From sequence record PZ386950.1: a stretch of DNA of 56,145 nucleotides. One strand, written 5' to 3'. Under the pieces are notes generated by a model. The model was not told where the DNA came from. It worked only from the letters and a program-made list of their open reading frames with translations, and searched no databases. The DNA comes from a phage. Both the position numbers and the translations under genes were made by a program. Of this stretch, positions 14,332 to 56,145 are shown one piece after another (the first letter of the stretch is position 1; each line of letters begins with the position of its first letter).

Positions 14332-14334
14332 CCG

Positions 14335-15354: not shown

Positions 15355-15373
15355 TAACAACTGTGGTATCATT

Positions 15374-15402: not shown

Positions 15403-15416
15403 ATGAGGTTAAAATC

Positions 15417-16184: not shown

Positions 16185-16210
16185 GCCGTCTGTTTAAGAC
16201 GGCTTTTTTT
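16185..16210 (+). terminator. rho-independent terminator
   Basis: stem gccgtct-gttta-agacggc followed by ttttttt. Confidence 0.7.
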
Positions 16211-16249
16211 CGTGCTAATATAACGAAAACATTTCTCACAGGTGATCAC

Positions 16250-17034: not shown

Positions 17035-17035
17035 T

Positions 17036-17889: not shown

Positions 17890-17925
17890 ACTACGAATGA
17901 TTGCAATCAAACGAGGCTTAGAACA

Positions 17926-19383: not shown

Positions 19384-19403
19384 CATGGTGGATGGTAGTG
19401 GTT

Positions 19404-19428
19404 GCCCGGTTAACGCCGGGCTTTTTTG
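19404..19428 (+). terminator. rho-independent terminator
   Basis: stem gcccgg-ttaacg-ccgggc followed by tttttt. Confidence 0.7.
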
Positions 19429-19488
19429 TTGCGTAATTTGTACAGAACTATTACTATCTAATCGTCTACTACATAAAAGGTAAAAACC

Positions 19489-19911
19489 ATGTCAAAGTTT
19501 GACCATCTGAAAAAAGCACTTTCTCCACTGGTGCTGAAGTCTTCTGCTGAACTGATTTTAAATGAAAATTTCAGTATCACCGTGTTGAACCTGAACACCG
19601 CTAACCAGGTATATAACGTAACAGTCGCGGACTATGTAAAACAGAACGGTGTGTTGTCTGAAAACTTCTTTGAAAAACTGTGGAGTCAGGAATATACACC
19701 AGAAGGTGTTAAGTTCGTGGCTAACGTTCTTATGCTGGACTGGAAACTGATTGGTGAAGATGACAAACCGGAACCATTCAGTGTCGAAGAAGCTATTGAA
19801 CTGTTAAGTGATGAACGTTTCGGTCAGGTGATCTACAGTCGTGTTATTCAGTTCGCAATTAATTCCGCATTCTTCAAGGACGAATGGGAAAAACAGATTG
19901 AAAAAAACTGA
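19489..19911 (+). CDS. tail assembly chaperone (G-like)
   Basis: 140-aa ORF directly upstream of tape measure gene, ends at slippery A_AAA_AAC. Confidence 0.7.
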   Translation: MSKFDHLKKALSPLVLKSSAELILNENFSITVLNLNTANQVYNVTVADYVKQNGVLSENFFEKLWSQEYTPEGVKFVANVLMLDWKLIGEDDKPEPFSVEEAIELLSDERFGQVIYSRVIQFAINSAFFKDEWEKQIEKN

Positions 19912-20207
19912 TTGACTTCCTCTTGTGGAACGATAAGACAGACGGGGACGACCTGGACTGGGTTACACAAGGGGCGGTTGCACGTGGTATATCTGTTCCG
20001 GTTGTTGTACAGAAACGTCCTAAACTGCGACCTGATGCTGTTTTTTACTGGAATGCTTTTTTGGATTTGATAGGTGCTGATTGGGTTGCTTGTGAGCGTT
20101 ATGCACGGGTGTATAACGTTGATGTACAATTCTTGTGGAAATTATTGATAGCATTGCGGTCTGCACGTGTTGCCGAGATGAAGAAAAATAAACATAAGCC
20201 CGGTTAG
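19489..20207 (+). CDS. tail assembly chaperone frameshift product (GT-like)
   Basis: -1 slip at A_AAA_AAC (19902-19908) continues into the 19923..20207 frame (KKLIDFLLWNDKTDG...). Confidence 0.6.
19902..19908 (+). other. programmed -1 ribosomal frameshift slippery heptamer
   Basis: A_AAA_AAC immediately before the stop codon of the chaperone ORF. Confidence 0.6.
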
Positions 20208-20221
20208 TTCCGGGCTTTTTC
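20197..20221 (+). terminator. rho-independent terminator
   Basis: stem agcccgg-ttagtt-ccgggct followed by ttttt. Confidence 0.6.
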
Positions 20222-20278
20222 ATATCTCGTGGTTAACGTGTTAAACTATATACATGCTTCACGAAAAGGTTAACCAAC

Positions 20279-23194: not shown

Positions 23195-23697
23195 TGAGCA
23201 ATACAGATGATTTACCACGGCTTGAGTACGGCGCGAAAATGGTGTTACCTGAGCGTGATAATTACAGTTATAACCCGCCGTGGGGTGTAACTAAATCTGA
23301 TATTTCCGGGACGCTATCACGGTTAGGTCGTAGCGCCTTTGGTGGTCCTGCTCAGGTATCGTGTACAATTCAGTTATATAGTCCTGCGATGCTTCAGTGG
23401 TGGGACGATTTTTATAATCTGGAAATCGCTGAAGGTAGTAAGCGGTTTGTGATGCAACTGTTTGTGAACGGTTTGATTCAGGAACACGTTGTTCAGATTG
23501 TCAGTAACCCGTCGTCCTCTGTTGTAGGATGGAAAGGATCTGTCGATCTACAGTTGCAAGCTGTTCCTGTAATCGACCGTTGCGCAATGGCATCACGATT
23601 GTTAATCACTAAATGCCAGGGTGATTACGCTGCTTGTTACCTTAAAGAAATTATTGATACTGGCCTACTCTTAAATAACGCGTGGACACCAGAATGA
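23194..23697 (+). CDS. minor/distal tail protein
   Basis: 167-aa ORF immediately after tape measure gene. Confidence 0.55.
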   Translation: MSNTDDLPRLEYGAKMVLPERDNYSYNPPWGVTKSDISGTLSRLGRSAFGGPAQVSCTIQLYSPAMLQWWDDFYNLEIAEGSKRFVMQLFVNGLIQEHVVQIVSNPSSSVVGWKGSVDLQLQAVPVIDRCAMASRLLITKCQGDYAACYLKEIIDTGLLLNNAWTPE

Positions 23698-24200
23698 AAG
23701 ACGAACTGCGTGAATTATTAACGGTCGCAACAACTGGTAAAGGTGTTGTTGACGGTGTGAAACTGAATCATAGTTCATGGCCTAATCCGCTATACATCAC
23801 CAGTATTTATCCGGGATTTATCGCTGTACATGAAGACGGTAAGGAATATGAGTACGAATACGTTCCGATGTCCGTCAAGAAGGCGAATAAACAAAACGAT
23901 TTATCACAGGATTATTCATTCACCATTCAGGATCTGAATGAAGTTGTCGGTGTATATCTGGACTTAATTCCGCTTGACAGTAATGAAAAACCATCTGTTG
24001 AGTTACGAACATTTGTTTACCGTGAAGATGGTTCCATGTCTGATATTCAGGATGGGCCATATCTTCTGGAATCTGGTGACATTACTACCGAACCACAGGG
24101 TTGTACGTTCACAGCATCACCACCTATTACAAACTTCGCCGGGACAGGTGAATTATATACGTTCGAACGTTTTCCTACATTGCTGGCGTATGCAACATGA
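23694..24200 (+). CDS. minor tail protein
   Basis: ATG 23694 in ATGA overlap. Confidence 0.5.
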   Translation: MKDELRELLTVATTGKGVVDGVKLNHSSWPNPLYITSIYPGFIAVHEDGKEYEYEYVPMSVKKANKQNDLSQDYSFTIQDLNEVVGVYLDLIPLDSNEKPSVELRTFVYREDGSMSDIQDGPYLLESGDITTEPQGCTFTASPPITNFAGTGELYTFERFPTLLAYAT

Positions 24201-24556
24201 TCGGTGATCGCTACGATATTGATAAATGGAATTGTACACACGAGGTCAGTCAGTGGTATCAGGTGCACAATTACCCACACGTATTGAAAACTGTTTCAGG
24301 TGATGAATGGGATATTGCGTTTGTCAGATGGATGCGAAAACGTTTTTCACCAATTACCACACCGGAACAAGGCGCGCTTGTACTGATGAAGAACCGATAT
24401 TCAGGCGGTTTTCATGTCGGCGTGTGGGATTGTGGAATGGTTCATCATTGTTATCAGCCACCTGGTGATTCACCAGGACAGACAATCAGATCACCTTTAA
24501 GTATAATCAAGACAGCACATAAAGAAATCACGTTCTGGAGAATGAAAAGTGTCTAA
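24197..24556 (+). CDS. tail protein with Cys/His peptidase-like motif
   Basis: 119 aa with conserved Cys and His spacing. Confidence 0.45.
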   Translation: MIGDRYDIDKWNCTHEVSQWYQVHNYPHVLKTVSGDEWDIAFVRWMRKRFSPITTPEQGALVLMKNRYSGGFHVGVWDCGMVHHCYQPPGDSPGQTIRSPLSIIKTAHKEITFWRMKSV

Positions 24557-27080
24557 AGTCATTTATCACACTAATCCTGTTGAACACGCGGATAACGTTG
24601 ACTTTGGTGAATGGATGCTGAAACGCTGGCCCGTGGGTACAGTTCGTCCGCGTGGGTTACTGATTTATAAAAACGACGAAAACATTACCCAGAAATGGGT
24701 CACTGACCCCAGCGTATTAACTGATCCTGATGCTGTTTATCACATTTATGAATTACCAAAAGGTGGGGTGGTTAGTGCAATAACGAAAGTTATTAGCACA
24801 ATTTTAAACCCCGTTTTAAAATTGTTCATGCCGAATACCAGTGCGTCGGCTAATCTTAAGAACTCACGTTCAGCGTCGTCTAACAACGCGCTTCAGGGGC
24901 GTACTAATGCTTCACGACCGGGTGAACGTATTTCTGATATCCGCGGTCGTGTACTGGCATATCCTGACCTGTTAATGGACTACCGAATCTTCATTGACCG
25001 AACAGAATATGAAGTTCAGTTTCTGTGTCTGGGTGCTGGTGAATACGAAGTCGAAGATGTTCGTGATGGTATTACACCTGCTGTAAATATCAGCGGTGAA
25101 AAATTAGACTTTTATAAAAAAGGTAATGCACCAGGGTATGGTTCTCCATATATGAATATCGGTGGTGCAATTGATATTAACACTTTTCCGATCATGGTTG
25201 CTAAGTCATCGAACGAAGCAGACGGATCTGAAGTCAAGCCACCAAACTATGCTGATATCAGCAAAGCGAGTTTTAAAATTTACAGCACTGGTGAAATTGA
25301 CACTATGATTTCCAGTGATGATAACACTACGGTTGACTGGTCGGAACGTGCACCAATCGGTAGTAAAATTCGTTTATCACAATTTTACAGTTTTACACCT
25401 AATACTTTACCGTTAAACACGTATGTACGTAATGACCTATCCGGTGAATATGATGTTATTTATGCAGGTGAGAATACGTTAATCATTGATACTACTGGTC
25501 GTGAAGGTTGGGATGCTCTGTCTGAAAGTGGTCAGGCTGCGTATACACAGGCTTACTTGCGAAATGACGGTTACTGGGAATTTGAAACCACTGAAGGAAG
25601 TGGAAGTTTTTTATACAAATTTTCACCATCTCTTGACAGTACTATGCCGTATATTGTCGGACCTTATCTGATCGATAGTGCGGATAAGCTGATGATCAAC
25701 TTGTATGCGCAGAACGGTGTGTATAAAACTGATGGTGATATTTATCCGTTTACCTGTGATTTCCAGGTAGTGTTGTCAGATCCTAATGGTGTGAAAGCGA
25801 ATGTGACACACTCTATGTCTGTTCGTGGTCGTTATACAGAAGCCGTAGGTAATTCATTAATCGTGGACAACCCTTTTGATGGTCCTGTTAACGTGTCTGT
25901 AAGACGACTATCAAATACAGACAAAGATTTCGAAGGATCTGTTGTTGACAACATTAAGTGGCGCGATTTATACGCTATCACGAACGTTTCTCCGCGTTCC
26001 TATGGTGATGTGACATTGATCCATACAGTAACGAAAGCAACAAACGCGGCACTGAAACAAAAAGAACGTAAGCTAAATATGATTGCAACACGTGTGTATA
26101 ACGGTGTTGCAAGTAGTAATTTTGCAGATGTTGCAATGTCAATGCACACAGATTCTTTATTTGGTCGTCGCACATTAGACACTATTGATCGTGATGCTTT
26201 ATATGCTGTTCAGGCACAACTTCTTGAATATTTTGGTGACCAACGAGCAATTGAGGTTGGCTATACATTCGATAACAACAGTACGACGTACGAAGAAGGA
26301 TTAGACATCATCTGTAACACGGTGAATGTTAAACCATATCAGATTGGTAGTGTATTATATTTCTGGCCCGAATTACCACAGGATCAGTCAGCAATGCAAT
26401 TTGGTCACGCGTTTAAAATTCCTGACAGTGATAAACGCACACGTTCTTTTGCACCACCTAAAGAATACACTGGTGTTCAGGTTAAATACTTCGACCACGA
26501 TGAAAAATCATATTTATACGTAACTAAAGGTGAAGAAACAAACCTTAATAAGATAGACCTTGTTGCGTGTCAGTCGAGATATCTGGCTACAATTCGCGCT
26601 AATCGTGAAATGAATAAACTACGTTATCAGCGTATTACGCACGAATGCACCGCGCTTAGTATCGGGTTGCAGGCTACCCCAGGAATGCGAGTGGATATGA
26701 TTGATAATACGAGAATGAAACAACATGAAGGAGTGATCATCGATGTTGATGGTTTAGTACTGACATTAAGTGACCCTGTTGATTTTGTTACAGGTAATAC
26801 ATATTCGATCACGATAACCGGGCGTTTAGGTACGCTTGAAAACATCCCTGTTTCACCGGGCGATGATGAATTTACAGTTATTTTACAATCTGCACCAACG
26901 GAAGAAATTTACACAGGATGGTTACAGGATCGGACAAGTTATATTATCAGAACAGATGATGAACGTAGTAAGCTGGCGATGCTGGTACAGACTATGGAAC
27001 CATCAGGCGCTGATAACAACTATCAGGTGGGTTTAACGTGCATCAATTACGATGCACGTTATTATCAAGATGACGTTTAA
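24549..27080 (+). CDS. tail tip / host-specificity protein
   Basis: 843-aa ORF after minor tail genes; GTG start preceded by GGAGAA. Confidence 0.6.
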   Translation: MSKVIYHTNPVEHADNVDFGEWMLKRWPVGTVRPRGLLIYKNDENITQKWVTDPSVLTDPDAVYHIYELPKGGVVSAITKVISTILNPVLKLFMPNTSASANLKNSRSASSNNALQGRTNASRPGERISDIRGRVLAYPDLLMDYRIFIDRTEYEVQFLCLGAGEYEVEDVRDGITPAVNISGEKLDFYKKGNAPGYGSPYMNIGGAIDINTFPIMVAKSSNEADGSEVKPPNYADISKASFKIYSTGEIDTMISSDDNTTVDWSERAPIGSKIRLSQFYSFTPNTLPLNTYVRNDLSGEYDVIYAGENTLIIDTTGREGWDALSESGQAAYTQAYLRNDGYWEFETTEGSGSFLYKFSPSLDSTMPYIVGPYLIDSADKLMINLYAQNGVYKTDGDIYPFTCDFQVVLSDPNGVKANVTHSMSVRGRYTEAVGNSLIVDNPFDGPVNVSVRRLSNTDKDFEGSVVDNIKWRDLYAITNVSPRSYGDVTLIHTVTKATNAALKQKERKLNMIATRVYNGVASSNFADVAMSMHTDSLFGRRTLDTIDRDALYAVQAQLLEYFGDQRAIEVGYTFDNNSTTYEEGLDIICNTVNVKPYQIGSVLYFWPELPQDQSAMQFGHAFKIPDSDKRTRSFAPPKEYTGVQVKYFDHDEKSYLYVTKGEETNLNKIDLVACQSRYLATIRANREMNKLRYQRITHECTALSIGLQATPGMRVDMIDNTRMKQHEGVIIDVDGLVLTLSDPVDFVTGNTYSITITGRLGTLENIPVSPGDDEFTVILQSAPTEEIYTGWLQDRTSYIIRTDDERSKLAMLVQTMEPSGADNNYQVGLTCINYDARYYQDDV

Positions 27081-27081
27081 T

Positions 27082-27345
27082 CTAAACATCATCTTCAACA
27101 GCGCTGGAAAATTTTTCCAGCGTTTTTAAATAATTATAAGCCTGAATAAAAGGGTTATCCCCCATAATGTCATAAGGGCATTCGTACTGTTCTGAATACA
27201 ACTCTTCTATCTCTTCTTTATTGGCAAAAAATCTAACGCCAAAAGATATAATTTGTTTATCACGAATGATGGCTGGCATGTTAACCCTGGCCACGCCCTG
27301 TGCCACGGTAAGACCACGAAAACTGATAGGTAAAATCAACGCCAT
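27082..27345 (-). CDS. putative tail fiber assembly/chaperone protein
   Basis: ATG 27345 with GGGGG RBS directly downstream of tail fiber gene on same strand. Confidence 0.4.
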   Translation of the reverse strand: MALILPISFRGLTVAQGVARVNMPAIIRDKQIISFGVRFFANKEEIEELYSEQYECPYDIMGDNPFIQAYNYLKTLEKFSSAVEDDV

Positions 27346-27356
27346 AAATCCCCCTA

Positions 27357-29783
27357 TTACCACGCAGCGACGGCAACGCGCCGCCATGTGTTAGTTGCTG
27401 TGCAAATATAAAGATAAGAGCCATCAGAAGCCCATTGCCCCTCCTGGCCTCCAGACGTTGCTGTTGCTGGGACTGGCACCTTCATGGAAAAAATATACCC
27501 ATCTGTAGCAGAAGCAGGCTCTGAACCTGGTTTATATAGAATCCCTACTGAGCTTTTGAAAAGCCAGCCTTGCCCCCACTGAATTCTACGTCTGTCGTAT
27601 GCTGGCTGTGTCGATGACTTTGTTCCAATAGCAAGATCGCTCTCTATTTTATACGGACCGGAATAGCTGCCAATGTTAATTGCGTTTTTAAGGTCGTGCG
27701 GGCCGATACAAATGCGACCAGAAACGTTGGAAGTCGACGTGTTAACGGAATAAGCAAGTCCGGGAAAGTCTTTAAGGTTTAAGACATCAAGATTGTTGAT
27801 GTTCTGAAAATACAGTGTTGTATCCGTCGAGACGGTTGAATAGTTAACGCCATCAATAATCCGCACGTCGTTGCCGACCGTTACCGCCCACGGGCCTGAT
27901 GCCGACCCCGCAATACTAATACACCGCCCCGCGTTTTTATCGTCGGCTTTGCGGACCGTGGGAATGAGGTCCAGATACTGAGGCCCGGTTACCTGTATGA
28001 AATTTGCGTCTACGGTCATTTTCGACCGGATAGGGTTTCGAATAAAAACACCAAAGTCGCAAGTCATTTCGGCAGTAAAATTAACAAGTTCATACAAACG
28101 GCTATCCGCGCCGCCGTGTGAGTTTGATAACGAACCGCCTTTAATACCATCAAGCCAGATCCCCAGACCGCCACGGTCCTTCCCTGTGCTTATCCCGGAG
28201 AAATGCACATTACGGCCCCAGTTGTAATATGGGGTGAAGAGGAAGTCTACATAGAAGCCGTTAATGGATTGTGACCCTGAAGAGATCCCGTAGTCGGTGG
28301 CGACCACGCCATCAACCGTACACTCGATAGGACTCATCATCTTAAATGCGGCGTTGTCCGTTGTGCCGGTAGCGCCAGACGTTACGATATTGTCAATCGT
28401 CATCCTGCGAGCATAAGTGAAGCTCATCGCGCTCGGAGTGGATGCCGTAACGATACAGTCCCCGAAGTTACCTGCGTAAGAGTAATCGTTAATGCTTCGA
28501 TTAAACCGGCAGCCTTTCACCTGCAGCGACGTTATCGCCCTGAGCTGTAAAACGTCAAAATTCGCATTCAGAATATTAAGTTTATTAAGGAACGCGGCGG
28601 GTACGATAAACGGATCGCCAAAGGCGGTAACCAGAGGGTCCTCTAAAACGAGCTGGGAAGCGCTGGCGGATTTAACCCGGGAATGTTCAAAATAGACGGT
28701 CCCGGAGTTAACGGAGTCTGTTCCGGTAATGTTTTCGAAGCGTACAACGTCACCAGCTGAAAATGCGCTGAAATCGCCGGTGATAGTTGTCGTCCCTACC
28801 GCCAGGGTGCCAGAGTATTTTACAAAAGTAGTTTTACTAATCACAAATTTATCAAAGGCAAAACGTAGCCCATCGGCGATAACCAATTGTGAAGAGTCAG
28901 CTGAAACTACAGTTGAGAAATGTATACCAATCTGATTTATACTACCATTGAATGCGGTATCTGCGGCTAGTTCAATTACAATCTTATCACCGGGACTATA
29001 CGCAGAAAAATTACCAGGAAAAGTTGTAGTACCTACAGCATAAGTTGTATAATCATTAACAGTACCAACAGTTACAGAATTAGTACGAGTTTTTAATATA
29101 TCGCCTTTTATGACAACAAAACCGCTGATAACACCAGGACCAGTTAGGTTAAGACCACCTCTGGAAAATACAAGGCCGTCCCAATTGACGTTAATATCTA
29201 CTACTGCTTGCTTATTGTTATCTATGCAGTAATTTAAAAAAGTGGTCGCTAATGCAGCCTCGTTTCCAGAACCTGTAAAGCCAAAAGATGACGCTGTAAC
29301 AGACGATAACCCGCCAACCATCATAGCACCGTTTACTGATGCCAGTTCCTGGCGTAAATTAGCATCACCAACACTCACCATATGAGTAACATCAGTTGCC
29401 CACGATGTACTATTTGTACCCGTGGTTGTGTATGGTGGAGTTGTGGCCGCGTTTAATCGCCAGAATTCATTCTGATAACGAATAATCTGGTTACGAGCTG
29501 CAATTGTGTATGGTCCGTTTTCATAATCTCCCAGGAACTGATACCCAGAATTTAAAAGGAATTGCTGAAAACGTGCTTCTTTATCAGCCTGAGCATCCTG
29601 AAACTGAGTCTCCATACCATCAAGTGTCAAGTTCGTTACTTGCTCACCGCGAATGGTATCAGTTACAGTTAACGCATGTGCACCGTTAGCATCTTTACTT
29701 TTAGCCACATGTTCTATGTGCTGGACTGCTTGTTTACCTGTTTTAAGGTCGTCAGCACTGATATAATCACTGCAGTTAGCCAT
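27357..29783 (-). CDS. tail fiber / tailspike protein
   Basis: 808-aa ORF; G/T/S/N-rich repetitive central region consistent with beta-helix; encoded opposite to the rest of the tail module. Confidence 0.65.
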   Translation of the reverse strand: MANCSDYISADDLKTGKQAVQHIEHVAKSKDANGAHALTVTDTIRGEQVTNLTLDGMETQFQDAQADKEARFQQFLLNSGYQFLGDYENGPYTIAARNQIIRYQNEFWRLNAATTPPYTTTGTNSTSWATDVTHMVSVGDANLRQELASVNGAMMVGGLSSVTASSFGFTGSGNEAALATTFLNYCIDNNKQAVVDINVNWDGLVFSRGGLNLTGPGVISGFVVIKGDILKTRTNSVTVGTVNDYTTYAVGTTTFPGNFSAYSPGDKIVIELAADTAFNGSINQIGIHFSTVVSADSSQLVIADGLRFAFDKFVISKTTFVKYSGTLAVGTTTITGDFSAFSAGDVVRFENITGTDSVNSGTVYFEHSRVKSASASQLVLEDPLVTAFGDPFIVPAAFLNKLNILNANFDVLQLRAITSLQVKGCRFNRSINDYSYAGNFGDCIVTASTPSAMSFTYARRMTIDNIVTSGATGTTDNAAFKMMSPIECTVDGVVATDYGISSGSQSINGFYVDFLFTPYYNWGRNVHFSGISTGKDRGGLGIWLDGIKGGSLSNSHGGADSRLYELVNFTAEMTCDFGVFIRNPIRSKMTVDANFIQVTGPQYLDLIPTVRKADDKNAGRCISIAGSASGPWAVTVGNDVRIIDGVNYSTVSTDTTLYFQNINNLDVLNLKDFPGLAYSVNTSTSNVSGRICIGPHDLKNAINIGSYSGPYKIESDLAIGTKSSTQPAYDRRRIQWGQGWLFKSSVGILYKPGSEPASATDGYIFSMKVPVPATATSGGQEGQWASDGSYLYICTATNTWRRVAVAAW

Positions 29784-29810
29784 CTTTTAACCCTCGTGGG
29801 AGTGTGAACA

Positions 29811-30134
29811 ATGTCCGATAATCCGGTATTGAAATATTGGCCTATTATAACATTTATTGCAACGGGTGCGGTAGGTTTTGGCGTACTCCAGCAACAGGTT
29901 AACGCAACGGCTAAAGATGTAGCTGACGCAAAAGTAAACGCCACCAACGCCTATAACCTCGCAAAACGTATTGAATCTCGTGTTGATGTACACGATGTAA
30001 AGTTAGAGTATCAGGCTGTTCAAAATACTCAAATCCTTTCCAGCGTCAAAGAACTTACCCAGTCTACTAACGATCTAAAAGTCGTTATTGAAGGTCTTAA
30101 AAATCAACGTCGTACAGAAGGTGAAACAAGATGA
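29811..30134 (+). CDS. holin-like protein (single TM helix plus coiled coil)
   Basis: N-terminal hydrophobic helix WPIITFIATGAVGFGVL; ATGA overlap with endolysin gene. Confidence 0.45.
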   Translation: MSDNPVLKYWPIITFIATGAVGFGVLQQQVNATAKDVADAKVNATNAYNLAKRIESRVDVHDVKLEYQAVQNTQILSSVKELTQSTNDLKVVIEGLKNQRRTEGETR

Positions 30135-30691
30135 GCACAGGCAACGTATCTGTTGATAAAATCATTGATACAACTATTGGTCACGAAGGAGGTTATTCAA
30201 ATAATAGCGCCGATCGTGGTGGTGCAACAATGTGGGGCATTACTGAGACTGTAGCACGTGCACACGGATACAAAGGTGATATGCGTTTATTACCACGGGC
30301 AACCGCTGTAAGCATTTACGAGGCTGATTACTGGTTTAGTCCTCGTTTCGATCTGGTACAACAAGTTTCACCGCTAATTGCCGCTGAACTTTTTGATACT
30401 GGTGTTAACATGGGGCCATCAGTTCCGTGCAAGTTTTTTCAACGGTGGCTGAATGTCTTCAATAATCAGCAAAAACTTTACCCTGATTTGATCGCAGACG
30501 GTCAAATCGGACCGCGAACTATTAATGCTCTTAAACAGTATTTAACCACCCGTGGTAAAGATGCTGAAAAAGTCATGGTGCGTGCGTTGAACTGTTCACA
30601 AGGTAATCGTTATCTGGAACTGTCAGAGGCACGGGAAGCGAATGAAACGTTTACTTATGGTTGGTTACTTAATCGCGTGGGGTCACTCTGA
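30131..30691 (+). CDS. endolysin (GH108-like N-terminal domain with peptidoglycan-binding C-terminal domain)
   Basis: GHEGGYSNNSADRGGATMWGIT matches the GH108 motif E-G-G-Y...D-x-G-G-x-T-x-x-G-I as I recall it. Confidence 0.75.
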   Translation: MSTGNVSVDKIIDTTIGHEGGYSNNSADRGGATMWGITETVARAHGYKGDMRLLPRATAVSIYEADYWFSPRFDLVQQVSPLIAAELFDTGVNMGPSVPCKFFQRWLNVFNNQQKLYPDLIADGQIGPRTINALKQYLTTRGKDAEKVMVRALNCSQGNRYLELSEAREANETFTYGWLLNRVGSL

Positions 30692-30933
30692 TGGATATGT
30701 TCAGCATGTTTCGTAACGCAGCGGGTGGTATCTCGTTAAGCCGTGCGCAGGCTGCGCTGGGGTTCCTTGTGGTAACCGGGATCCTGATTTACCAGGCAGT
30801 CGATCAGACATTAGATAACACGGTTCTGTTAACGTACTTCGGTTTTTGTATCGGTCAGTATGTTGGCGCTAAGAAAATTGCCGTTGATAAGGATATCAAA
30901 GAACAGAAAATTGATGCGGGGTTAAACCCATGA
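30691..30933 (+). CDS. holin (two TM helices)
   Basis: 80 aa with two hydrophobic helices and charged C-terminus. Confidence 0.55.
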   Translation: MDMFSMFRNAAGGISLSRAQAALGFLVVTGILIYQAVDQTLDNTVLLTYFGFCIGQYVGAKKIAVDKDIKEQKIDAGLNP

Positions 30934-31328
30934 CTATTCGTAGCATTGCCATTACAGCGGTCGCACTTTTACTGGCTTTAGCGGCAGGTGGTATAACCTG
31001 TTACAAGGCTGGATATAAAGCGCGATTGAATGAAGAAAAACAGGAAAAGTTAAATGATGCACAACAGGAACAGTTGCGTTTAAAAGCACAGCAACAGTTG
31101 GCAGATAACGTTTTACGTGGTCTTGCTGACTGGTCACAAAATACTAAAATCGTGGAAATTCGTCATGAAAAAACTAATACTGTTTTTCGTAATGAGTGTC
31201 TTACTCCTGAATATCAGCGCCTGTACAACGAACGAGTTACCGAAGCAGAAAGCCGTTTATCAGGCCGCATTAGTTCAGAAGTGTCAGACCGAAAACCTTC
31301 CACGGCTGAACGGTCTGACAGGAAGTGA
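30930..31328 (+). CDS. i-spanin (Rz-like)
   Basis: N-terminal TM helix then coiled coil; contains nested o-spanin ORF. Confidence 0.65.
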   Translation: MTIRSIAITAVALLLALAAGGITCYKAGYKARLNEEKQEKLNDAQQEQLRLKAQQQLADNVLRGLADWSQNTKIVEIRHEKTNTVFRNECLTPEYQRLYNERVTEAESRLSGRISSEVSDRKPSTAERSDRK

Positions 31329-31413
31329 TTCAACAGATGTTAATGACAAGTGGTTAGATATTTATTTCAAATGTGCAACTATTCACAACGCATTAGTAGA
31401 CAGTCTTCAGTAA
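31165..31413 (+). CDS. o-spanin (Rz1-like lipoprotein), overlapping i-spanin in +1 frame
   Basis: MKKLILFFVMSVLLLNISAC lipobox; ORF starts inside the i-spanin gene and extends past its stop. Confidence 0.7.
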   Translation: MKKLILFFVMSVLLLNISACTTNELPKQKAVYQAALVQKCQTENLPRLNGLTGSDSTDVNDKWLDIYFKCATIHNALVDSLQ

Positions 31414-31626
31414 ATCTTCAACCGATACTTCAATCCACGATGCGGGAACCGGATATTCAGTCCGGTACATGAACAAGGATGTTCCTATCAACCCGTGTGG
31501 ATCTGTTTTAATCCCTCGCATGTTCAACAACGGAAAAAACTGTTCGCGTGTTTGTGGCAATCGTGCAAAGCGTCCTGTCGGGCGTTTAGCAGGATCCATA
31601 GGGTTGAATTCAACGATTGTGGACAT
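31393..31626 (-). CDS. hypothetical protein
   Basis: 77-aa ORF at end of minus-strand replication operon. Confidence 0.45.
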   Translation of the reverse strand: MSTIVEFNPMDPAKRPTGRFARLPQTREQFFPLLNMRGIKTDPHGLIGTSLFMYRTEYPVPASWIEVSVEDLLKTVY

Positions 31627-32131
31627 AACAATAACTCCTGTACGCTTGTCGTTTTATTTTCTGATAGTCGGAAACTTTTACAGATCTCGTTTTACATTCA
31701 CCGATATGATGTGGGTCGAAAACAAACATCACCTGTGAACGGTCATTTCCGCCTGCAGGTAACCCGGTGTCAGGATCTACAAACGCTATACGACCTTTAA
31801 ATACCCATAGTTCTGAACAATGTGTCAGTGCTTTATGAAACCAGTCTGCAGACGTCATAGCGTTCACAAGTAATAACGAACCAGTTCCCTGATAAACAGT
31901 GGTTATTATTTTATTAACCCAGGGGGACGGATCGCTGTACGGTGGGTTACACCAGACGAACCCACCACCATTACTTTGAACAATCGAATGCCAGTCTTTA
32001 TTCAGACTATCAGTGATAAACAACGAACATTTAGCGTTAGAACCATCGGTACACACATCAAGAACAAGTGGGAATTCACGAGAAACATTATCAATAAAAT
32101 CCCACGGTGTTTCCCAGTTGTCTTTAGCCAT
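31610..32131 (-). CDS. dam: DNA N6-adenine methyltransferase (phage Dam-like)
   Basis: FVWCNPPY catalytic motif, WETPWDF N-terminus; trimmed to ATG 32131 (MAKDNWETPW). Confidence 0.8.
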   Translation of the reverse strand: MAKDNWETPWDFIDNVSREFPLVLDVCTDGSNAKCSLFITDSLNKDWHSIVQSNGGGFVWCNPPYSDPSPWVNKIITTVYQGTGSLLLVNAMTSADWFHKALTHCSELWVFKGRIAFVDPDTGLPAGGNDRSQVMFVFDPHHIGECKTRSVKVSDYQKIKRQAYRSYCYVHNR

Positions 32132-35316: not shown

Positions 35317-36300
35317 TCAGTAACCGTTACCGTTGAGAAAATTCGGGGCCGGGGTGGTCATTACCATATAACCGTTAGCGATCAGTTGTTCATCATTCCA
35401 ACCTTGCGCAATAAACTGTTCGTAAGTAGCACCACCTGCTTTTTCAGTCATTACCTTCACAGGCGTTGCTACAGGTGCTGCCGCTGGTGTAGGCGTTGCT
35501 ACAGGTGCTGCCGCTGCTACAGGCGCTGCTACAGGTGCTGCCGCTGGTGTAGGCGCTGCTACAGGTGCTGCCGCTGGTGTAGGCGCTGCTACAGGTGCTG
35601 CCGCTGGTGTAGGCGCTGCTACAGGTGCTGCCGCTGGTGTAGGCGCTGCTACAGGTGCTGCCGCTGGTGTAGGCGCTGCTACAGGTGCTGCCGCTGGTGT
35701 TACGCCGATCGGACGTGCACCTTCAGGCATTGCAGGAGCAGCACCGAACACAGATGCAGGAGCCGGACCAGAAATAATTTCTTCACCTGCATAAAGCAAT
35801 TGCGCCATTTCCATGTTGATATACACACCGGCCTGGTTACCTGTACGACCGTTTGCAACAGATGATCCGCTGATACGGTAGTAATAACCTTTTTTCGCCA
35901 GATTTTTATCAATAACTGGCTGGTACGCTGCGTTATAAACCGGACACGCGTCAATAGCCACGTTGCGTGAGAAACCAATTACCCAGTGACCAGCATAACC
36001 AGTTTTACTCGCATGTTTCGGATCGTCACCGTTAATAATTTTCCATGCGAAAGTGGGTTGTTGTGGTTCGCCGTTCACATAGTGTGAGTTAGCCGCTCGC
36101 ATGATGGCCTGGAACACCGCACCCAGTTCACCTTGTTCTTCCCACCAGTTCGCCGCTGTTTTAGGAAACGCCAGACCAACCCACCAGTTATGTTTTTCAG
36201 GTGCTAACGGTTTATTTTCGTGGTCATGGGTGTTGATATCGAAAAAAGAACCGCCAACCAGACGACCAACCGGAGTTACAAAAGATTCTTTCTGTGCCAT
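35317..36300 (-). CDS. putative ssDNA-binding protein (DUF2815/gp2.5-like) with P/A-rich repeat linker
   Basis: position between DUF2800 nuclease and polymerase genes; strong RBS AAGAAGG; long PTPAAAPVAA repeats; C-terminal conserved module. Confidence 0.45.
   Translation of the reverse strand: MAQKESFVTPVGRLVGGSFFDINTHDHENKPLAPEKHNWWVGLAFPKTAANWWEEQGELGAVFQAIMRAANSHYVNGEPQQPTFAWKIINGDDPKHASKTGYAGHWVIGFSRNVAIDACPVYNAAYQPVIDKNLAKKGYYYRISGSSVANGRTGNQAGVYINMEMAQLLYAGEEIISGPAPASVFGAAPAMPEGARPIGVTPAAAPVAAPTPAAAPVAAPTPAAAPVAAPTPAAAPVAAPTPAAAPVAAPTPAAAPVAAPVAAAAPVATPTPAAAPVATPVKVMTEKAGGATYEQFIAQGWNDEQLIANGYMVMTTPAPNFLNGNGY
35461..35700 (-). repeat. 30-bp coding tandem repeat (about 8 copies)
   Basis: aggcgYtgctacaggtgctgccgctggtgt repeated nearly perfectly. 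Confidence 0.9.
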
Positions 36301-36315: not shown

Positions 36316-37461
36316 TTAAAGTGGACGTGCGCCAGTCGGCATCGTCACGGGTTTATTAAAAACAGATTCTGCCAGTGTGCTGTGACCTTTACGCGGGTCA
36401 CTGTCAGGTACTAAAACTGGCTGACCTTCTGGTTTTGTCGTACACATGTCAACAAGTGCCGGAGGCAGTGATTTTTCCAGTGTTGACAATGGTTTTAATT
36501 TACGTTCGTACAATGTTTCAGGGTTTACACCAAACATTGGTGCAGCACCGATCAGTTTTCCTTCGTCCGTAAGCTGACGTCGGGTTTGTTTTGTTGCAAG
36601 TTTAAAACCCGGTAAAGCCTTACCCATGCGAACAAAATGTAACCCCTGAGTATGTAACGCTGTTTTTGCTTCAGAAGAACGCGTATACAGTTCTTCAAGA
36701 AGTGCCAGACGACGCGCTACTTCTTCTGGTGTAAGTGATGGTGGTGCGTCAAGAACAGTAGCCAATTCTAAAACCCTCTCATACATTGCCGGACACATAC
36801 CACGCGCCGGACAGTAATGACAATGACTACCAACATTTAACGGTGCGTCTGGTTTATGTGCTTCGTTAAACCCGTGTTTAAATCGTTCAGCCCATTCCAT
36901 CAATGTTGCCCGGTTAAACTCCCATCGTCTTACAGGTCCGAGTGGGTGATAAGCCCGTGGCTGAACAATTGTGAACACAACGCGCTTAACAGTGTCGATG
37001 CAACGTTGGTCCAGTGCATAATAGACCCCCTGTGAGTTATCAACTGCGTCAACTGCAACATGACCGTATTTATAATCCCATACATAAAGCGTATCAGTAT
37101 TAAAGTCATACCAGCGATAATCACAGGTTCCGTACTGACCGGGTAACAACCAGTCAATGTGAATGCGAACTTCTGAAAACAGCGGATCAAGTTTCGCACC
37201 AACTGAAAGAACATCTGCTATAAAGTCATCCGCGTAAATGTGCATGTCTTCAGTAACCTGAACACCGTTAGGAGCAATACACGGCATTAATGGCGGTTTA
37301 CCTTTAATCTTCTGTTCTAACACCCAGTGCCCGGCTGTACCTTCTTCAGCACTGGGTGATGATGGTTCTACATAATCAATCCGCTGTGACAGTTGAACGC
37401 TACCAGGACAAGCTAACCAACGTTTTGATCCACTGGCACTAAAGGTAGCGTGACTTGTCAT
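36316..37461 (-). CDS. PD-(D/E)xK nuclease, DUF2800 / Cas4-like
   Basis: N-terminal FSASGSKRWLACPG and C-terminal Cys cluster CHYCPARGMCPA. Confidence 0.7.
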   Translation of the reverse strand: MTSHATFSASGSKRWLACPGSVQLSQRIDYVEPSSPSAEEGTAGHWVLEQKIKGKPPLMPCIAPNGVQVTEDMHIYADDFIADVLSVGAKLDPLFSEVRIHIDWLLPGQYGTCDYRWYDFNTDTLYVWDYKYGHVAVDAVDNSQGVYYALDQRCIDTVKRVVFTIVQPRAYHPLGPVRRWEFNRATLMEWAERFKHGFNEAHKPDAPLNVGSHCHYCPARGMCPAMYERVLELATVLDAPPSLTPEEVARRLALLEELYTRSSEAKTALHTQGLHFVRMGKALPGFKLATKQTRRQLTDEGKLIGAAPMFGVNPETLYERKLKPLSTLEKSLPPALVDMCTTKPEGQPVLVPDSDPRKGHSTLAESVFNKPVTMPTGARPL

Positions 37462-49966: not shown

Positions 49967-50764
49967 TTATTGACCCATCATATCTTTATACATCATCAAA
50001 ACAATATCATCCGGCATATTGTCTACATCACAATGTGGGTTGTGTGATAACGCATACAGTCTGATTTTCTCCTTCAAATCGCTGACATCGACTACAGGTG
50101 CTTCCACTCGTGTTACAGGTGCTTCCACTCGTGTTACAGGTGGAAGCACTCGTGTTACAGGTGGTTCCACTCGTGCTACAGGTGCTTCCACTCGTGCTAC
50201 AGGTGCTTCACAAACCATCACATTAAACGGTGTACCGGTGCCTTCGTATTTTTCAAGCAAATCGACCATTACGTTTACACATTCCGGGATCCATCCCCGG
50301 CGCAAACCATTCTGAATCCAACTGTCAGTAATTGTGTGTTCGTTTAAATTCCTGCGTAGCACATATCTTGCACATTCAAAATTACCGCACATCGCCTCAA
50401 ACCGTGTCCACACGTCGTGACCGTGAACAGCTTCCAGGATCTGTGAATCAACGTATCTGACACGTTGCCAGTAGTTATTAGCAAAACGCCTGTGTGGTAA
50501 TTTCTGACGCAGTTCGGTAACCGGTATTGTGTGTTTAAGAACAATGTTTTCGTCAGAATGTTGTACTGACGAAGGTGACAGTGTGAAGTCAGTAATCTCT
50601 TCAAGAATAATACTGATCGTTTCATATTTAGGATGAAACCTACCGCTTAACCATTGGTTGTAACGACCAATGGTTACCTTAACACCTCGACGATTAAGGT
50701 ATTCAACAGCATTTTGTACCCCGCCTTTTAAATCTATCAATTCGTCTAAAAGGTTCTTTTTCAT
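49967..50764 (-). CDS. hypothetical protein with EAPVARV tandem repeats
   Basis: ATG 50764 with perfect RBS AAGGAGG; divergent from terS across the iteron region. Confidence 0.55.
   Translation of the reverse strand: MKKNLLDELIDLKGGVQNAVEYLNRRGVKVTIGRYNQWLSGRFHPKYETISIILEEITDFTLSPSSVQHSDENIVLKHTIPVTELRQKLPHRRFANNYWQRVRYVDSQILEAVHGHDVWTRFEAMCGNFECARYVLRRNLNEHTITDSWIQNGLRRGWIPECVNVMVDLLEKYEGTGTPFNVMVCEAPVARVEAPVARVEPPVTRVLPPVTRVEAPVTRVEAPVVDVSDLKEKIRLYALSHNPHCDVDNMPDDIVLMMYKDMMGQ
50092..50212 (-). repeat. 21-bp coding tandem repeat (about 6 copies)
   Basis: acaggtgcttccactcgtgtt repeated with point variants. Confidence 0.85.
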
Positions 50765-50809
50765 TATCACCCCTCCTTATTTGACCACGGATAAATCATA
50801 ACGCGCGTT

Positions 50810-51125: not shown

Positions 51126-51374
51126 AGTGTATTAGCTGTAAATAGAGCTAAAATAAAAGTCTGGGAGATACCTATTGTAATCTATGTTTTTATGCAAGTC
51201 TTTGAAATTATTGTGATTATTGGATACGTATTTATGTATGTGATCGAAAATTAGTGCATGTTGTGCACTAACTGTAAACTTAATACTAACGTTGTATTAG
51301 CTGTAAAACAGGGCGTGTGGACAACCCGTGGGTATCTGTGGGAAACTAATTTAAAATTTATGGGAGACAAATTT

Positions 51375-52010
51375 ATGAAAATTTCAGACCGGGCTAAAAG
51401 GGCTGCTCTGGAGTTAACAACCGATCAACTCCGTTTCGCTAACCTGTGGTTAGATCGTGTCAATAACGGCTTCAGCAACGCTCAGTGCGTCTTACACGCT
51501 TATCCGGGACATAAAGACCCTGACGCAGCTAAAGTCACCGCACATCGCCTCCTGTCGAATACGAAGGTGTTGAACTATCTGGACGCGATGGGAAGTCATG
51601 CGCTTGAGTCTGTCGGGGAATCGTTAACGAGTCGTGTCGAGTGGTGGAAACGAGCGGCAAGTACGGCTGAAGAATTACTGGAACCGTATTGTCAACGTGT
51701 CATCGTTCCTGGCGAAGACGACACAGAAGCGAAACACCTGTGGGTGAACAGTACCGGCGATATCCCCAGCCATCTGCAACAGTACGTAGTTTGCTACAAA
51801 CGTTACATGCTGGGTGGATACATTCTGGTGACACGTGAACTGTTCGATCCGAAAACTCGTGCAAAAGCGTCTGAACAACTGGATAAGATCACCGGGAACA
51901 GTATCGACCGTGTGGAATTGTCTGGCGTGGTTGGTAACGTGGTTCAGAGTGTTCCTGAAGGTGCAACTATCGACGACATCGCGCAATTGTATCAGAAGGC
52001 GCTTAAATAA
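51375..52010 (+). CDS. terS: terminase small subunit
   Basis: trimmed to ATG 51375 (RBS GGGAGA); N-terminal HTH-like region FANLWLDRVNNGFSNAQCVLHAY resembles small-terminase DNA-binding domains. Confidence 0.65.
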   Translation: MKISDRAKRAALELTTDQLRFANLWLDRVNNGFSNAQCVLHAYPGHKDPDAAKVTAHRLLSNTKVLNYLDAMGSHALESVGESLTSRVEWWKRAASTAEELLEPYCQRVIVPGEDDTEAKHLWVNSTGDIPSHLQQYVVCYKRYMLGGYILVTRELFDPKTRAKASEQLDKITGNSIDRVELSGVVGNVVQSVPEGATIDDIAQLYQKALK

Positions 52011-52325: not shown

Positions 52326-52350
52326 TTAAAAACCCCGGTTAGTTCCGGGG
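52326..52350 (-). terminator. rho-independent terminator (minus strand)
   Basis: stem ccccgg-aactaa-ccgggg followed by ttttt on minus strand. Confidence 0.55.
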
Positions 52351-52359
52351 TAATGTTCA

Positions 52360-52695
52360 TTATTCGCCCAACGCTTCTTTCAACAACCGATACGTTTCAG
52401 GACATTTACCGGATCCGCGTTCACGTTCATAAGCTGCGCTGATTGTGTCCCAGTTTTCAATCACTCCTTTAAACGCCGGACATTTTTCAGCAATCAATGG
52501 AAAACTGTTTCTGATTTCTGGTACAGCTTCAACCAGGAACCAACAACGGCAAAAATCAGCAACATCCCGTGGTGCACGAAATCCCCAGTCGCCATCCATT
52601 TCATTACCTGTGTGAATGCAGACCATCGTTTTAGAACTTAGTCCAGTTTCACCAGAGCATAACCACTGAATAATACGTTCCTGTTCTGTTTTCAT
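52360..52695 (-). CDS. hypothetical protein
   Basis: 111-aa ORF. Confidence 0.5.
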   Translation of the reverse strand: MKTEQERIIQWLCSGETGLSSKTMVCIHTGNEMDGDWGFRAPRDVADFCRCWFLVEAVPEIRNSFPLIAEKCPAFKGVIENWDTISAAYERERGSGKCPETYRLLKEALGE

Positions 52696-52856
52696 TTCAC
52701 ATCACCTTTTAAATATTTATCATCACCCGAAATCCAAAAACGGCTACCAATATTTGGTGCGTTGTCCCACGGCATCTGTTCAGTTACTTCAATTTCAACT
52801 TCTCCGTGTTCATTACGGTTAACGATTTTCACGGGCACACCGTCATAGGTTTTCAT
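52692..52856 (-). CDS. hypothetical small protein (54 aa)
   Basis: ATGA overlaps at both ends; not in track. Confidence 0.35.
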
Positions 52857-53767
52857 CGTTTAGTCTCCCCACCCAAAGCCGTGATAAGTTGTTTAATCAG
52901 CGCCTGAAGTTCACCTGTCATTAGTACAAAATCAGCGTCGAATCGTGCCAGACTGTCTTCGCAGTCAATATCGTCGTTCTGGTCGAGCAACCCATCACAG
53001 AACTTCACACGGTTTAACGTCATGTTGTAAGTTAGCGTAAACGTTACCCGTTGCTGCCAGTCCATCGCCAGCTTTGTAACGATTTTCCCGGCTTCAATAT
53101 GCGTGGCTATTTCATCACTGGTTAAATCCTGTTTTTTAACGCGTGCAACACCGCCATCAGTCAGGTTTGCTTTCAGTTCAGCAGAATCACCCATTGTGAA
53201 ACCTGTTGGCGCGTTTCCTGAACGTACCCACTCCGTCATCGTCAGTTCAACAGGGTTTTCCATCGTCAGCGGGACGACTGGCAGACTACCCAGGGGTTTA
53301 CGCAACAGTGCTAATGCGTCTTCAGCCCGTTTAGCACTGGACGCATCAACCACGATTAATCCGTTAGTAATATCAATCCACAACTGTGTACGACTGTTTT
53401 TAACAAATGCTCGTGGTAACAGACTATGCAACACTTCATCTTTCAGTGCGTCTTTCTCTGTTTTCTTCAGCTTACGTGCCTGTTCCGCTTCCAGTTTGAC
53501 GATTCGCGCGTTCAGATGCTGTTTAATGACCGGACCCGGAATAATCTTTTCCTGTTTCTGGATGGTCAGCAAATATTGCCCGTTAGCCTGGTGAACCAGC
53601 GTATGATGTTGTTCAGTTGCCGGAACCCACCCAGTACGCGCCATATCCTGTGAACCACATGGGGTAAACTGAAATGCACACAGGCTGTCTTCCAACGTTG
53701 GTAAATGGGCCATTAATTGCATCGGGTTAGTCAGACGATAAATGATTGCGTTTTTAAAGAAGTTCAT
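52853..53767 (-). CDS. rdgC: recombination-associated protein RdgC
   Basis: [16 protein letters not shown] ... [38 protein letters not shown] near-identical in pattern to E. coli RdgC. Confidence 0.8.
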
Positions 53768-53961
53768 AGTTCAATGTCCTGTGGTTTGATAGTAACTTTT
53801 CCGTCAAGAACAACAGTGTTTACACCACTTAGTTTTTGTTCTTCGTATAAATCAAGTTCAACATTAATTCCGACGATTGAGGCTTCGTGTATCGCACAGT
53901 TTAACTGTTTAATGAGGTCTGAAATTCTACGCTGATAATCTTGTGCTTCTGATAGTTTCAT
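53764..53961 (-). CDS. hypothetical small protein
   Basis: 65-aa ORF. Confidence 0.4.
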
Positions 53962-54109
53962 TTCCTGTTCCTTCTTTTCTTCGCCTCGCGTCTGGCTTTT
54001 GCAATACCTGTTTTACGATGTGGTTGTTTACGGTCAGTAATAATTCCGTATGGTGGGATATCCCACAAAGTGTTAGCGGAACCTAATAATTTAATCATGT
54101 AATCTAAGA

Positions 54110-54403
54110 TCATACGTTCACCACTCTTAAATCGGGTGTCAGGCTACGATGGTCATGATGACCGTTCATAGTAAATGAGAAAGTGTAATCGCACTGCTTA
54201 CCGTCGAACGTGAAGGGGATTTGAAACCCTGTATCGTCAACGATGCGAACTTTAACCGGGTATTCAGCTTGCGGATCGACTGCTACAACAGTGCCGAACG
54301 GTTTAGATTTGCGACGTGCGAGAATTTCTAACAGTCGTGGATTGGTGATTTCTACGTATTGACCAGTTTTAAACATGGCGATAACTCCAGTTGTTTTACA
54401 CAA
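54110..54403 (-). CDS. hypothetical protein
   Basis: 97-aa ORF downstream of promoter copy 10. Confidence 0.45.
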   Translation of the reverse strand: MCKTTGVIAMFKTGQYVEITNPRLLEILARRKSKPFGTVVAVDPQAEYPVKVRIVDDTGFQIPFTFDGKQCDYTFSFTMNGHHDHRSLTPDLRVVNV

Positions 54404-54408: not shown

Positions 54409-54450
54409 AGTCTATCTGATAATGTGTAAACCGTCAAGAATTATTTTAAA
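54409..54450 (-). promoter_or_regulatory. sigma70-type promoter with UP element (copy 10)
   Basis: minus-strand TTAAAATAATTCTTGACGGTTTACA. Confidence 0.5.
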
Positions 54451-54627
54451 CTGTCCGTCACTGTCTGCAGCGTAACAAATACCGTGACTGTAGATTGTCG
54501 CAGTTCGTGTAATGCGTTGATAGTCTGAGCATTGGTTACGAACACGAAGGTCATACCCGGACTGTATGATCAGCCAGGTTGCAATAATAGCGAGTAATTT
54601 TAAAACGTATCTGAACATGTTCCGCAC
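54412..54627 (-). CDS. hypothetical small protein
   Basis: 71-aa ORF with hydrophobic N-terminus. Confidence 0.35.
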   Translation of the reverse strand: MRNMFRYVLKLLAIIATWLIIQSGYDLRVRNQCSDYQRITRTATIYSHGICYAADSDGQFKIILDGLHIIR

Positions 54628-54689: not shown

Positions 54690-55085
54690 TTAACAGGGGT
54701 TTCGGCTGGCGTAAAACTTTGTACCTACTGGCATACGTTCCATGCCGAGTTTTCCACGCAAGTATTTGTATGTTTCACCGGGAGAACGTAGTTCTGCTTC
54801 ACACGGTCTTTCAACAATTTCACCCACGGGATCACCTAACGCGCCTTTCCACCCTTCCCACATTGCACTCATAGTGATAAACCAGACACTACCTAAACTG
54901 GCTTTCTTGTTCTCCCAAAACCAATCGATGAACTCTATCGACATTCCGTGCTGTTTTGCAATTTCGTAACGGTCATCCACTTTTTCAACCCTCCACCCAT
55001 ATTTGGCACGATTCATAGCGGTCCGTTCATCATTCGTGGTGAACAGTACGCGCCCGGATTTATGACAAATGTTCCAAGTCGTCAT
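54690..55085 (-). CDS. hypothetical protein
   Basis: 131-aa ORF. Confidence 0.5.
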   Translation of the reverse strand: MTTWNICHKSGRVLFTTNDERTAMNRAKYGWRVEKVDDRYEIAKQHGMSIEFIDWFWENKKASLGSVWFITMSAMWEGWKGALGDPVGEIVERPCEAELRSPGETYKYLRGKLGMERMPVGTKFYASRNPC

Positions 55086-55299
55086 TTCGCTAATACACCA
55101 ATAATGAAAATTAGCATATAGAATAAAACATTACGGGTCATAATTCATAAACCTTAAAACTACCGCCTGAATAGCGATGTTTATTACACAAATTACAACG
55201 GTGTTCCTGATTTGCGTAGTTACGTTCATCACCGTGTATAGTACGATATAAACACCATTCGTGTTTGCAGAATAATCGTTTGATAAATATCTTCATAGT

Positions 55300-55494
55300 T
55301 CAATAACCCCTCCTCGACTGGTAATCAATTTTCTTCAGTGATTGTTGCACGATCTGCCAGGATGACAACATGAATAATTGCGCGTATTGTCCCAGTGCTA
55401 AATTTCGTGGTTTATCCTGGTAAGCGTAAATGGTCGCAATGTCATCACCATTTAAACGGATCCGCCACGGTGTCAGAGTTGGTTTATCACCCAT
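55300..55494 (-). CDS. hypothetical small protein
   Basis: trimmed to ATG 55494. Confidence 0.4.
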   Translation of the reverse strand: MGDKPTLTPWRIRLNGDDIATIYAYQDKPRNLALGQYAQLFMLSSWQIVQQSLKKIDYQSRRGY

Positions 55495-55816
55495 GTTCGA
55501 CGCGCTCCAGTAGTTCACGAATGTTTTGCAACACCTGTTGTTTTGTCTGAGTAGTGACACATACACCATCAGTACGCCCAAAAGTTTCTAACACAGTTTG
55601 AAGTGCTTGATATATTTCAGGACTATTTAACATTAATGACAGGTTACCCCGGAGTTCCTGGAGTTTTTCTTGTTCTTCGTTTGGTAAATAACAAGGGTCT
55701 TCCATTTTAATAACCACTTGCGCGATTGCCCCGTGGTCTGGTGATGAAATACTCACATGATTTTCAACCCATCCTTCATCTTTAAACCACGGTAATTGTG
55801 AACATTTCATACTCAT
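55487..55816 (-). CDS. hypothetical protein, first gene after promoter copy 11
   Basis: 109-aa ORF. Confidence 0.5.
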   Translation of the reverse strand: MSMKCSQLPWFKDEGWVENHVSISSPDHGAIAQVVIKMEDPCYLPNEEQEKLQELRGNLSLMLNSPEIYQALQTVLETFGRTDGVCVTTQTKQQVLQNIRELLERVEHG

Positions 55817-56040
55817 GACCCTCTTGTTTTTTGTTTAGTGAAAAGATATCTCTTCAACCCGTCGCAACTAATTTCACAATCCCCGCAGGAACCACCATCC
55901 AACCAGATGATGCATAGTGTGTGATTTCGTGGGGTGAGTTACGCTTTATACTCACCGTAGCGCCTGACAATCAGCGGTATCTTCAGCCGGACAATTCCGG
56001 GTTACTACATACTTGGTCAGGTATCTTTTCTATGGCAATA

Positions 56041-56082
56041 ACTATACAGATACATGAGTAATCTGTCAAGAATTATTTTAAA
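56041..56082 (-). promoter_or_regulatory. sigma70-type promoter with UP element (copy 11)
   Basis: minus-strand TTAAAATAATTCTTGACAGATTACT plus 17 bp and TATAGT. Confidence 0.65.
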
Positions 56083-56145
56083 TCTCTGTCACCACCAATC
56101 ACCCGTGGTAAACTGTATAGAACAGTTACAAACGGGCCGATAACC

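Follow-up and report, generated by a model that had tools for sequence, protein, structure and literature searches.

The rdgC gene described here lies in a window of 56,145 nucleotides (the whole stretch of phage DNA that was analysed, record PZ386950.1). The window begins at the terL ATG and ends just upstream of terL. Its last 5 kb match 9NA-like siphophages (Nonanavirus/Sashavirus) of E. coli, Salmonella, and Klebsiella, and its central 25 kb are 97.2% identical over 99% of their length to Escherichia phage PDP46. This terL-to-terL layout and these matches show the window to be a phage genome that is complete and circularly permuted. Its source is a virulent 9NA-like siphophage closest to coliphage PDP46; phages of the 9NA type are virulent and use pac/headful packaging. 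The genome supplies a DNA polymerase, helicase, and primase of its own. Between terS and terL, rdgC sits in a tightly packed leftward operon of ∼3.7 kb, a block of ten or eleven small genes. The features that matter for the argument are these:

1..1764, plus strand: terminase large subunit (terL), flanking the rdgC block by virtue of the circular permutation
35317..36300: gp2.5-like SSB/annealase
36316..37461: exonuclease
51258..52010, plus strand: terminase small subunit (terS), flanking the block on its other side; the start is possibly at 51375, as in PJ16 and Sergei
52332..52351, minus strand: intrinsic-terminator-like hairpin, a 7-bp stem with 6 GC pairs followed by TTTTT
52360..52695, minus strand: downstream operon gene, 111 aa, phrog_1229, directly preceding the terminator
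52692..52856, minus strand: downstream operon gene, 54 aa
52853..53767, minus strand: rdgC, 304 aa plus stop, an intact open reading frame (ORF list) with an ATG start
53764..53961, 53958..54113, 54110..54403, and 54412..54627, minus strand: small upstream operon genes with no assignable function
54110..54376, minus strand: clade-restricted ORFan of 88 aa, present in exactly the 16 phages with an intact rdgC
54690..55085, 55138..55296, 55300..55581, and 55487..55816, minus strand: further small upstream operon genes with no assignable function
55817..56035, minus strand: non-coding leader of ∼215 nt, from the promoter to the first ORF, with strong conservation in Sergei and 9NA
56041..56069, minus strand: sigma70-like promoter at the operon head, TTGACA-17-TATAGT, matching 11 of 12 consensus positions

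From 54403 down to 52360, each gene junction is a 4-bp overlap. rdgC itself shares ATGA with the gene before it, its ATG overlapping that gene's stop, and its own stop codon runs into the start of the gene that follows. The terminator-like hairpin lies 9 nt past the stop of 52360..52695, and a terminator is annotated at the matching position in Sergei. At the other end, the promoter occupies the intergenic region upstream of the block. Only two promoter matches of 11/12 or better occur in the 56-kb window, where ∼1.7 are expected by chance, and promoter-like sites show no enrichment over shuffled sequence. Because the count is near chance, the case for this promoter rests on its position and conservation rather than on number: its −35 box and spacing are kept in Bas82, Sergei, and 9NA, whereas the surrounding sequence varies. 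The original prediction had called the block early, and a promoter of host type makes early expression plausible. The leader that follows could have a regulatory or packaging-related role; its predicted RNA fold is no more stable than those of shuffled sequences (z = −0.57), and it has no match in Rfam.

The neighbours of rdgC are as obscure as had been proposed. The ORF list, together with Pfam, PHROG, and PADLOC scans, confirms the earlier description of a minus-strand block of small unknown genes, since neither Pfam nor PHROG (ten genes) nor PADLOC (nine genes) assigned a function to any of them. The only hits were a sub-threshold match to DUF5490 and a PHROG label, “radical SAM domain-containing protein,” on a 65-aa protein; we gave this label no weight, 65 aa being far too short. 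By eye, the sole membrane-looking neighbour is a 71-aa protein with a single pass. Separately, the phrog_1229 protein has homologues in 264 phage records, including phage 434, Stx-converting phages, P22-like phages, PY54, and 60-kb Vibrio phages.

When positions 1..32000 of the window are set against the Bas82 map, the run of virion-assembly genes is seen to be broken repeatedly by leftward blocks of small genes. Such interruptions follow terL, the portal gene, and the head-morphogenesis gene, and they also fall within the tail genes. The rdgC block belongs to this set of several accessory islands. Scans of the whole 56-kb stretch for tRNAs and for Rfam families gave no hits. Two further sequence features were observed around the block. 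The ∼56 nt before the terL start (56090..56145) hardly differ between the window and the phages Bas82, PJ16, Sergei, and 9NA, and divergence sets in beyond them; this element may be a signal for terL translation or for late transcription. In addition, a 21-bp tandem repeat at 50093..50209 (5.6 copies, 90% matches) lies inside the minus-strand ORF 49967..50770, which encodes a 267-aa protein of phrog_25538, and it specifies the heptad repeats EAPVARV / PPVTRV. The “direct tandem repeat region” annotated in Sergei falls in a different gene (gp17) of the terS–terL block.

The assignment of 52853..53767 to the RdgC family (PF04381 in Pfam, PRK00321 in NCBIfam) is near certain, and the gene is genuine, intact, and full-length. 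The Pfam RdgC profile (PF04381) matches with E = 7.3e-116 and 387 bits, where the gathering cut-off is 25, and the match spans residues 3–301 of the 304-residue protein and positions 2–298 of the 298-position profile. The NCBIfam equivalog NF001462 scores 414.7 bits over a cut-off of 330, and the subfamily model NF001464 scores 330.1 bits over 227. PHROG 724 (“exonuclease recombination-associated”) is matched end to end, with E = 1e-127, and nothing sets the window protein apart from this family. The E. coli RdgC crystal structure (PDB 2OWL) gives a full-length match at E = 2.8e-126, and P. aeruginosa RdgC (2OWY) matches at E = 1.5e-66. The profile and structure-sequence searches of all four libraries (Pfam, NCBIfam, PHROG, and PDB) thus bear out the claim of a full-length RdgC homolog at this position: a different family, the outcome that would have spoken against it, scored in none of them, and RdgC was the only one returned. 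The enterobacterial chromosomal equivalog NF001460 is the one model whose cut-off exceeds the score obtained (466.8 bits, below 501). This shortfall bears on orthology to the host gene and leaves membership in the RdgC family intact. It also agrees with the placement of the phage clade outside the Enterobacterales cluster, described below.

Alignment to the host protein points in the same direction. Window RdgC and E. coli RdgC (2OWL) have the same length and a global identity of 65.6%, and all functionally mapped residues are kept. The residues whose mutation abolishes the function of E. coli RdgC were defined by Briggs et al. 2010 (PMC2965237): R118 and F120 at the gate, Q212, E218, H222, and K227 in the horseshoe, and R97, K98, K100, and K101 at the fingertip. 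All 10 are retained in the window protein. Gate residues R118/F120 correspond to R119/F121 and are invariant in 121 phage-clade sequences, as is the horseshoe hydrogen-bond network (Q213, E219, H223, and K228 in the window). The basic fingertip, which E. coli RdgC requires for loading onto circular DNA, is present as R98, K99, K101, and K102. Across the 121 sequences, seven of the ten critical residues never vary. The other three change rarely or conservatively, most often from K98 to R, a substitution that occurs in 24 of the 121, and the other fingertip positions are at least 98% conserved.

The pore tells a similar story. Ha et al. 2007 (PMC1885664) showed that eight pore residues of P. aeruginosa RdgC are required for binding double-stranded DNA (R4, K70, R81, R122, K146, R198, R208, and R252), and all eight positions are basic in the window protein (K5, K71, K82, K123, R147, K199, R209, and R253). 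E. coli RdgC likewise has a basic pore. Given the 66% identity to 2OWL and the retained residues, phage RdgC is predicted from its sequence to form a toroidal dimer and to bind duplex DNA without sequence preference. An AlphaFold2 model of the monomer had low confidence (pLDDT 53 and pTM 0.40) and was set aside; it came from a shallow alignment of 25 sequences that included only relatives with at least 77% identity. When the gene is compared pairwise with its PJ16 and Sergei counterparts, dN/dS is 0.11–0.16, with dS of 0.35–0.78. Where the phage protein does depart from the cellular one, nine positions are fixed differently between the two clades. Most of these substitutions are conservative, and several adjoin the pore or the gate (R69Q, E71Q, R122K, and Q125R).

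The gene is already known in close relatives. The E. coli phages PJ16 (PJ16_006), PDP46, AVIO78A, and KarinMuster_Bas82 (Bas82_0099), the Salmonella phages Sergei (gp07), Solent, and FSL SP-062/SP069, and the Klebsiella phages KP13-27, Kpn BU9, and VLCpiS10a carry it in the same slot of the leftward terS–terL block, with 76–93% amino-acid identity. They differ from the window only by sequence drift and by the identity of the small flanking genes. Annotation varies: PJ16 has “recombination-associated protein,” Sergei and Solent have “putative recombination-associated protein,” and FSL SP-062/SP069 have “RdgC exonuclease.” The gene is likewise annotated in Bas82, AVIO78A, PDP46, and several Klebsiella phages. 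Across the whole set, most records name it as RdgC, a recombination-associated protein, or an exonuclease; in the e270/phi_270/phi_KPN_H2 group it is labelled hypothetical, and in BDX09P1 it is unannotated. The “exonuclease” label in many records stems from the Pfam name. With rdgC annotated in these relatives and PHROG 724 established as a family, the presence of the gene is not new.

How the gene is distributed says more about its history. We counted 20 distinct sequenced phages with a TerL identity of at least 87%, and rdgC is intact in 16 of them. Phages 9NA, Sasha, and 536P12 lack it. In the Klebsiella phage Carvaje, only the last ∼106 codons are left (CDS 2680..3012, annotated “RdgC exonuclease”), and this remnant directly adjoins a homologue of window gene 55138..55296, which in the window lies 1.3 kb upstream. 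The Carvaje remnant is a deletion scar, left by the loss of the genes upstream and of two thirds of rdgC from its N-terminal end. The window protein is 77–94% identical to its best 120 relatives in the database, many of which lie on contigs of ∼55–60 kb. The phage clade as a whole holds together at an identity of at least 74% across E. coli, Salmonella, and Klebsiella phages.

This clade stands well apart from cellular RdgC. Its identity to the Enterobacterales chromosomal proteins is flat, at 57–70% (∼65%), whereas those proteins are 70–91% identical to E. coli RdgC, with a cell–cell median of 81%; the phage clade falls outside their cluster. A tblastn search of 185,579 species representatives found no cellular genome with more than 66% identity to the window protein, and in a MAFFT alignment a cellular RdgC reached at most 70% identity to any phage-clade member. 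Nor does any E. coli genome contain a copy that spans 80% or more of the phage gene. On these results, we rejected both recent capture from a host and a prophage origin. The host gene itself is nearly universal: of 5426 complete E. coli genomes, 5425 have it, with ∼70% nucleotide identity to the phage gene. The flat and distant relationship to cellular RdgCs thus makes the phage gene an old resident of the phage lineage, and it is best described as an old, maintained, dispensable accessory gene. Because the host already has rdgC, infected cells gain a second, diverged RdgC.

The cellular survey turned up a few records that deserve separate mention. Contigs assigned to Vagococcus sp. WN89Y and Pseudomonas lundensis I31 carry rdgC genes 91% and 81% identical, respectively, to E. 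coli RdgC, values typical of Enterobacterales, and these assemblies are probably contaminated or mislabelled. Two rdgC copies were found in Serratia quinivorans, in Brenneria sp. hezel4-2-4, and in an Enterobacteriaceae MAG. In each, the second copy is the more divergent (64% identical to E. coli RdgC in the MAG), and these second copies may lie on a mobile element.

Beyond the 9NA-like group, tblastn detected RdgC homologues in 504 of 50,697 phage records, including HrdC of P1 and P7. HrdC is also a phage-borne, full-length RdgC homologue, and it is 58% identical to the window protein. In contrast to the window gene, it belongs to temperate plasmid-prophages, adjoins the dmt methyltransferase gene, and forms a separate lineage. 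P1 hrdC is non-essential by CRISPRi; apart from this result, we found no functional study of a phage RdgC in the literature. Relative to E. coli chromosomal RdgC, whose gate, horseshoe, and fingertip residues are identical, the phage copy is distinguished by the nine fixed substitutions and by its location in a phage operon rather than at the host locus.

What might such a gene do? The ring formed by cellular RdgC binds DNA, whether linear or circular, without specificity. It acts as an inhibitor of RecA, both of strand exchange and of the ATPase, and of LexA cleavage, and it counteracts RecFOR-mediated loading of RecA (PMC11077077, PMC2965237). The original prediction was that the phage may use RdgC to tune RecA-dependent recombination or to protect replication intermediates, and this appears reasonable. 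Our preferred account, to which we give somewhat better than even odds as a complete explanation, is that an orthodox RdgC expressed early from its operon restrains RecA and SOS in favour of the phage's own recombination. Host RNA polymerase would transcribe rdgC from the conserved sigma70-type promoter of the leftward operon, and the protein would probably be made soon after injection. Going by the biochemistry of E. coli RdgC, this extra, phage-timed dose would coat duplex DNA and thereby block strand exchange and ATP hydrolysis by RecA, as well as the LexA cleavage that RecA stimulates. Host RecA and RecFOR would be kept off the linear, terminally redundant phage genome and its replication intermediates. 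Circularisation and concatemer formation would then be left to the phage's gp2.5-like annealase and exonuclease, which constitute a RecA-independent recombination route, and SOS signalling would be damped.

Two qualifications shape this account. First, because the host already has rdgC, what the phage copy would contribute is dose and timing, not a novel function. Any benefit is also conditional, since 4 of the 20 relatives lack an intact copy. Second, RdgC promotes a RecA-dependent process in Neisseria, and “inhibitor” may therefore be too simple a term for it.

Among the alternatives, the one that survives best is that RdgC shields the genome or its ends, the ring threading onto linear DNA ends or coating the DNA in the manner of a nucleoid protein and so guarding it against RecBCD or other nucleases. 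We consider this unlikely, though several points favour it. The RdgC toroid binds linear and circular DNA without specificity, headful packaging means that the injected DNA is linear with free ends, and no recognisable Gam- or Abc2-type inhibitor of RecBCD is found among the annotated genes of Bas82. The genome also has zero Chi sites, but with only ∼0.5 expected per strand this count is uninformative. Against shielding, Bas82 bears rdgC and yet is reported to be highly sensitive to Old and to restriction-modification systems (PMC11990801), a sensitivity that argues against any broad protection from nucleases. Moreover, the protein would have to be synthesized first, by which time the ends are already exposed, and we found no literature evidence that RdgC blocks RecBCD.

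A slightly less probable reading turns on the 88-aa ORFan. All 16 rdgC carriers have it, none of the 4 non-carriers does, and it occurs in no other phage record; in a metagenome-scale search, it appeared only on contigs of 9NA-like size. It has no Pfam, PHROG, or PADLOC match, and its AlphaFold2 model, with a pLDDT of 58, was too poor to use. The small genes between it and rdgC differ among phages, over a separation of <1.3 kb, and this variability suggests that the two genes possibly form a functional module. Because the ORFan is clade-restricted and lies <1.3 kb from rdgC, its association with rdgC is equally what linkage would give. With low probability, rdgC and the ORFan would make up an early module of two genes that allows a strictly virulent phage to silence host RecA-dependent signalling. 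The signalling in question would be SOS induction, the induction of prophages or colicins, or defences triggered by RecA or SOS. If so, the module would be a phage counterpart of the anti-SOS PsiB/SSB genes in plasmid leading regions.

Less probable still is a role like that of lambda Rex, in which the protein would exclude co-infecting phages or act as a DNA-sensing switch. Lambda RexA has a distant fold similarity to the centre and base domains of RdgC (PMC11077077), and Casjens and colleagues propose such a role for the RdgC homologues of lambdoid phages (PMC12315714). RexA, however, has no sequence similarity to window RdgC, and it acts from a prophage, whereas the window phage is virulent. 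There is no RexB partner at the locus, and no PADLOC model is hit by RdgC or by the nine neighbours scanned.

The remaining two explanations are very improbable. Phage RdgC might act as a poison subunit, forming a heterodimer that inactivates the host copy and frees RecA for recombination-dependent replication. Its interface residues (R118, F120, Q212, E218, H222, and K227) are indeed identical to those of the host, and several of the nine fixed differences lie by the pore or gate; those differences are mostly conservative, however, and the DNA-binding and loading residues are kept under strong purifying selection, which a mere poison would not need. That rdgC is a neutral passenger, host-derived and simply not yet lost, would fit a highly plastic accessory block in which three relatives lack the gene and one keeps a deletion remnant, but it is hard to square with the low dN/dS, with intact copies in phages of three host genera and in >100 metagenomic relatives, and with ∼65% identity to every Enterobacterales RdgC and no recent donor.

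On its own, the finding of an RdgC homologue in a phage carries little weight, since such homologues have been catalogued since P1 HrdC and already form a PHROG family. It does raise a general question, namely what a phage RdgC does though every enterobacterial host has its own copy. The 9NA-like group provides a clean system in which to address it: these phages are virulent, and rdgC-plus and rdgC-minus relatives occur naturally among them. One of the carriers, Bas82, belongs to the BASEL collection and grows on E. coli K-12 whose O16 O-antigen has been restored.
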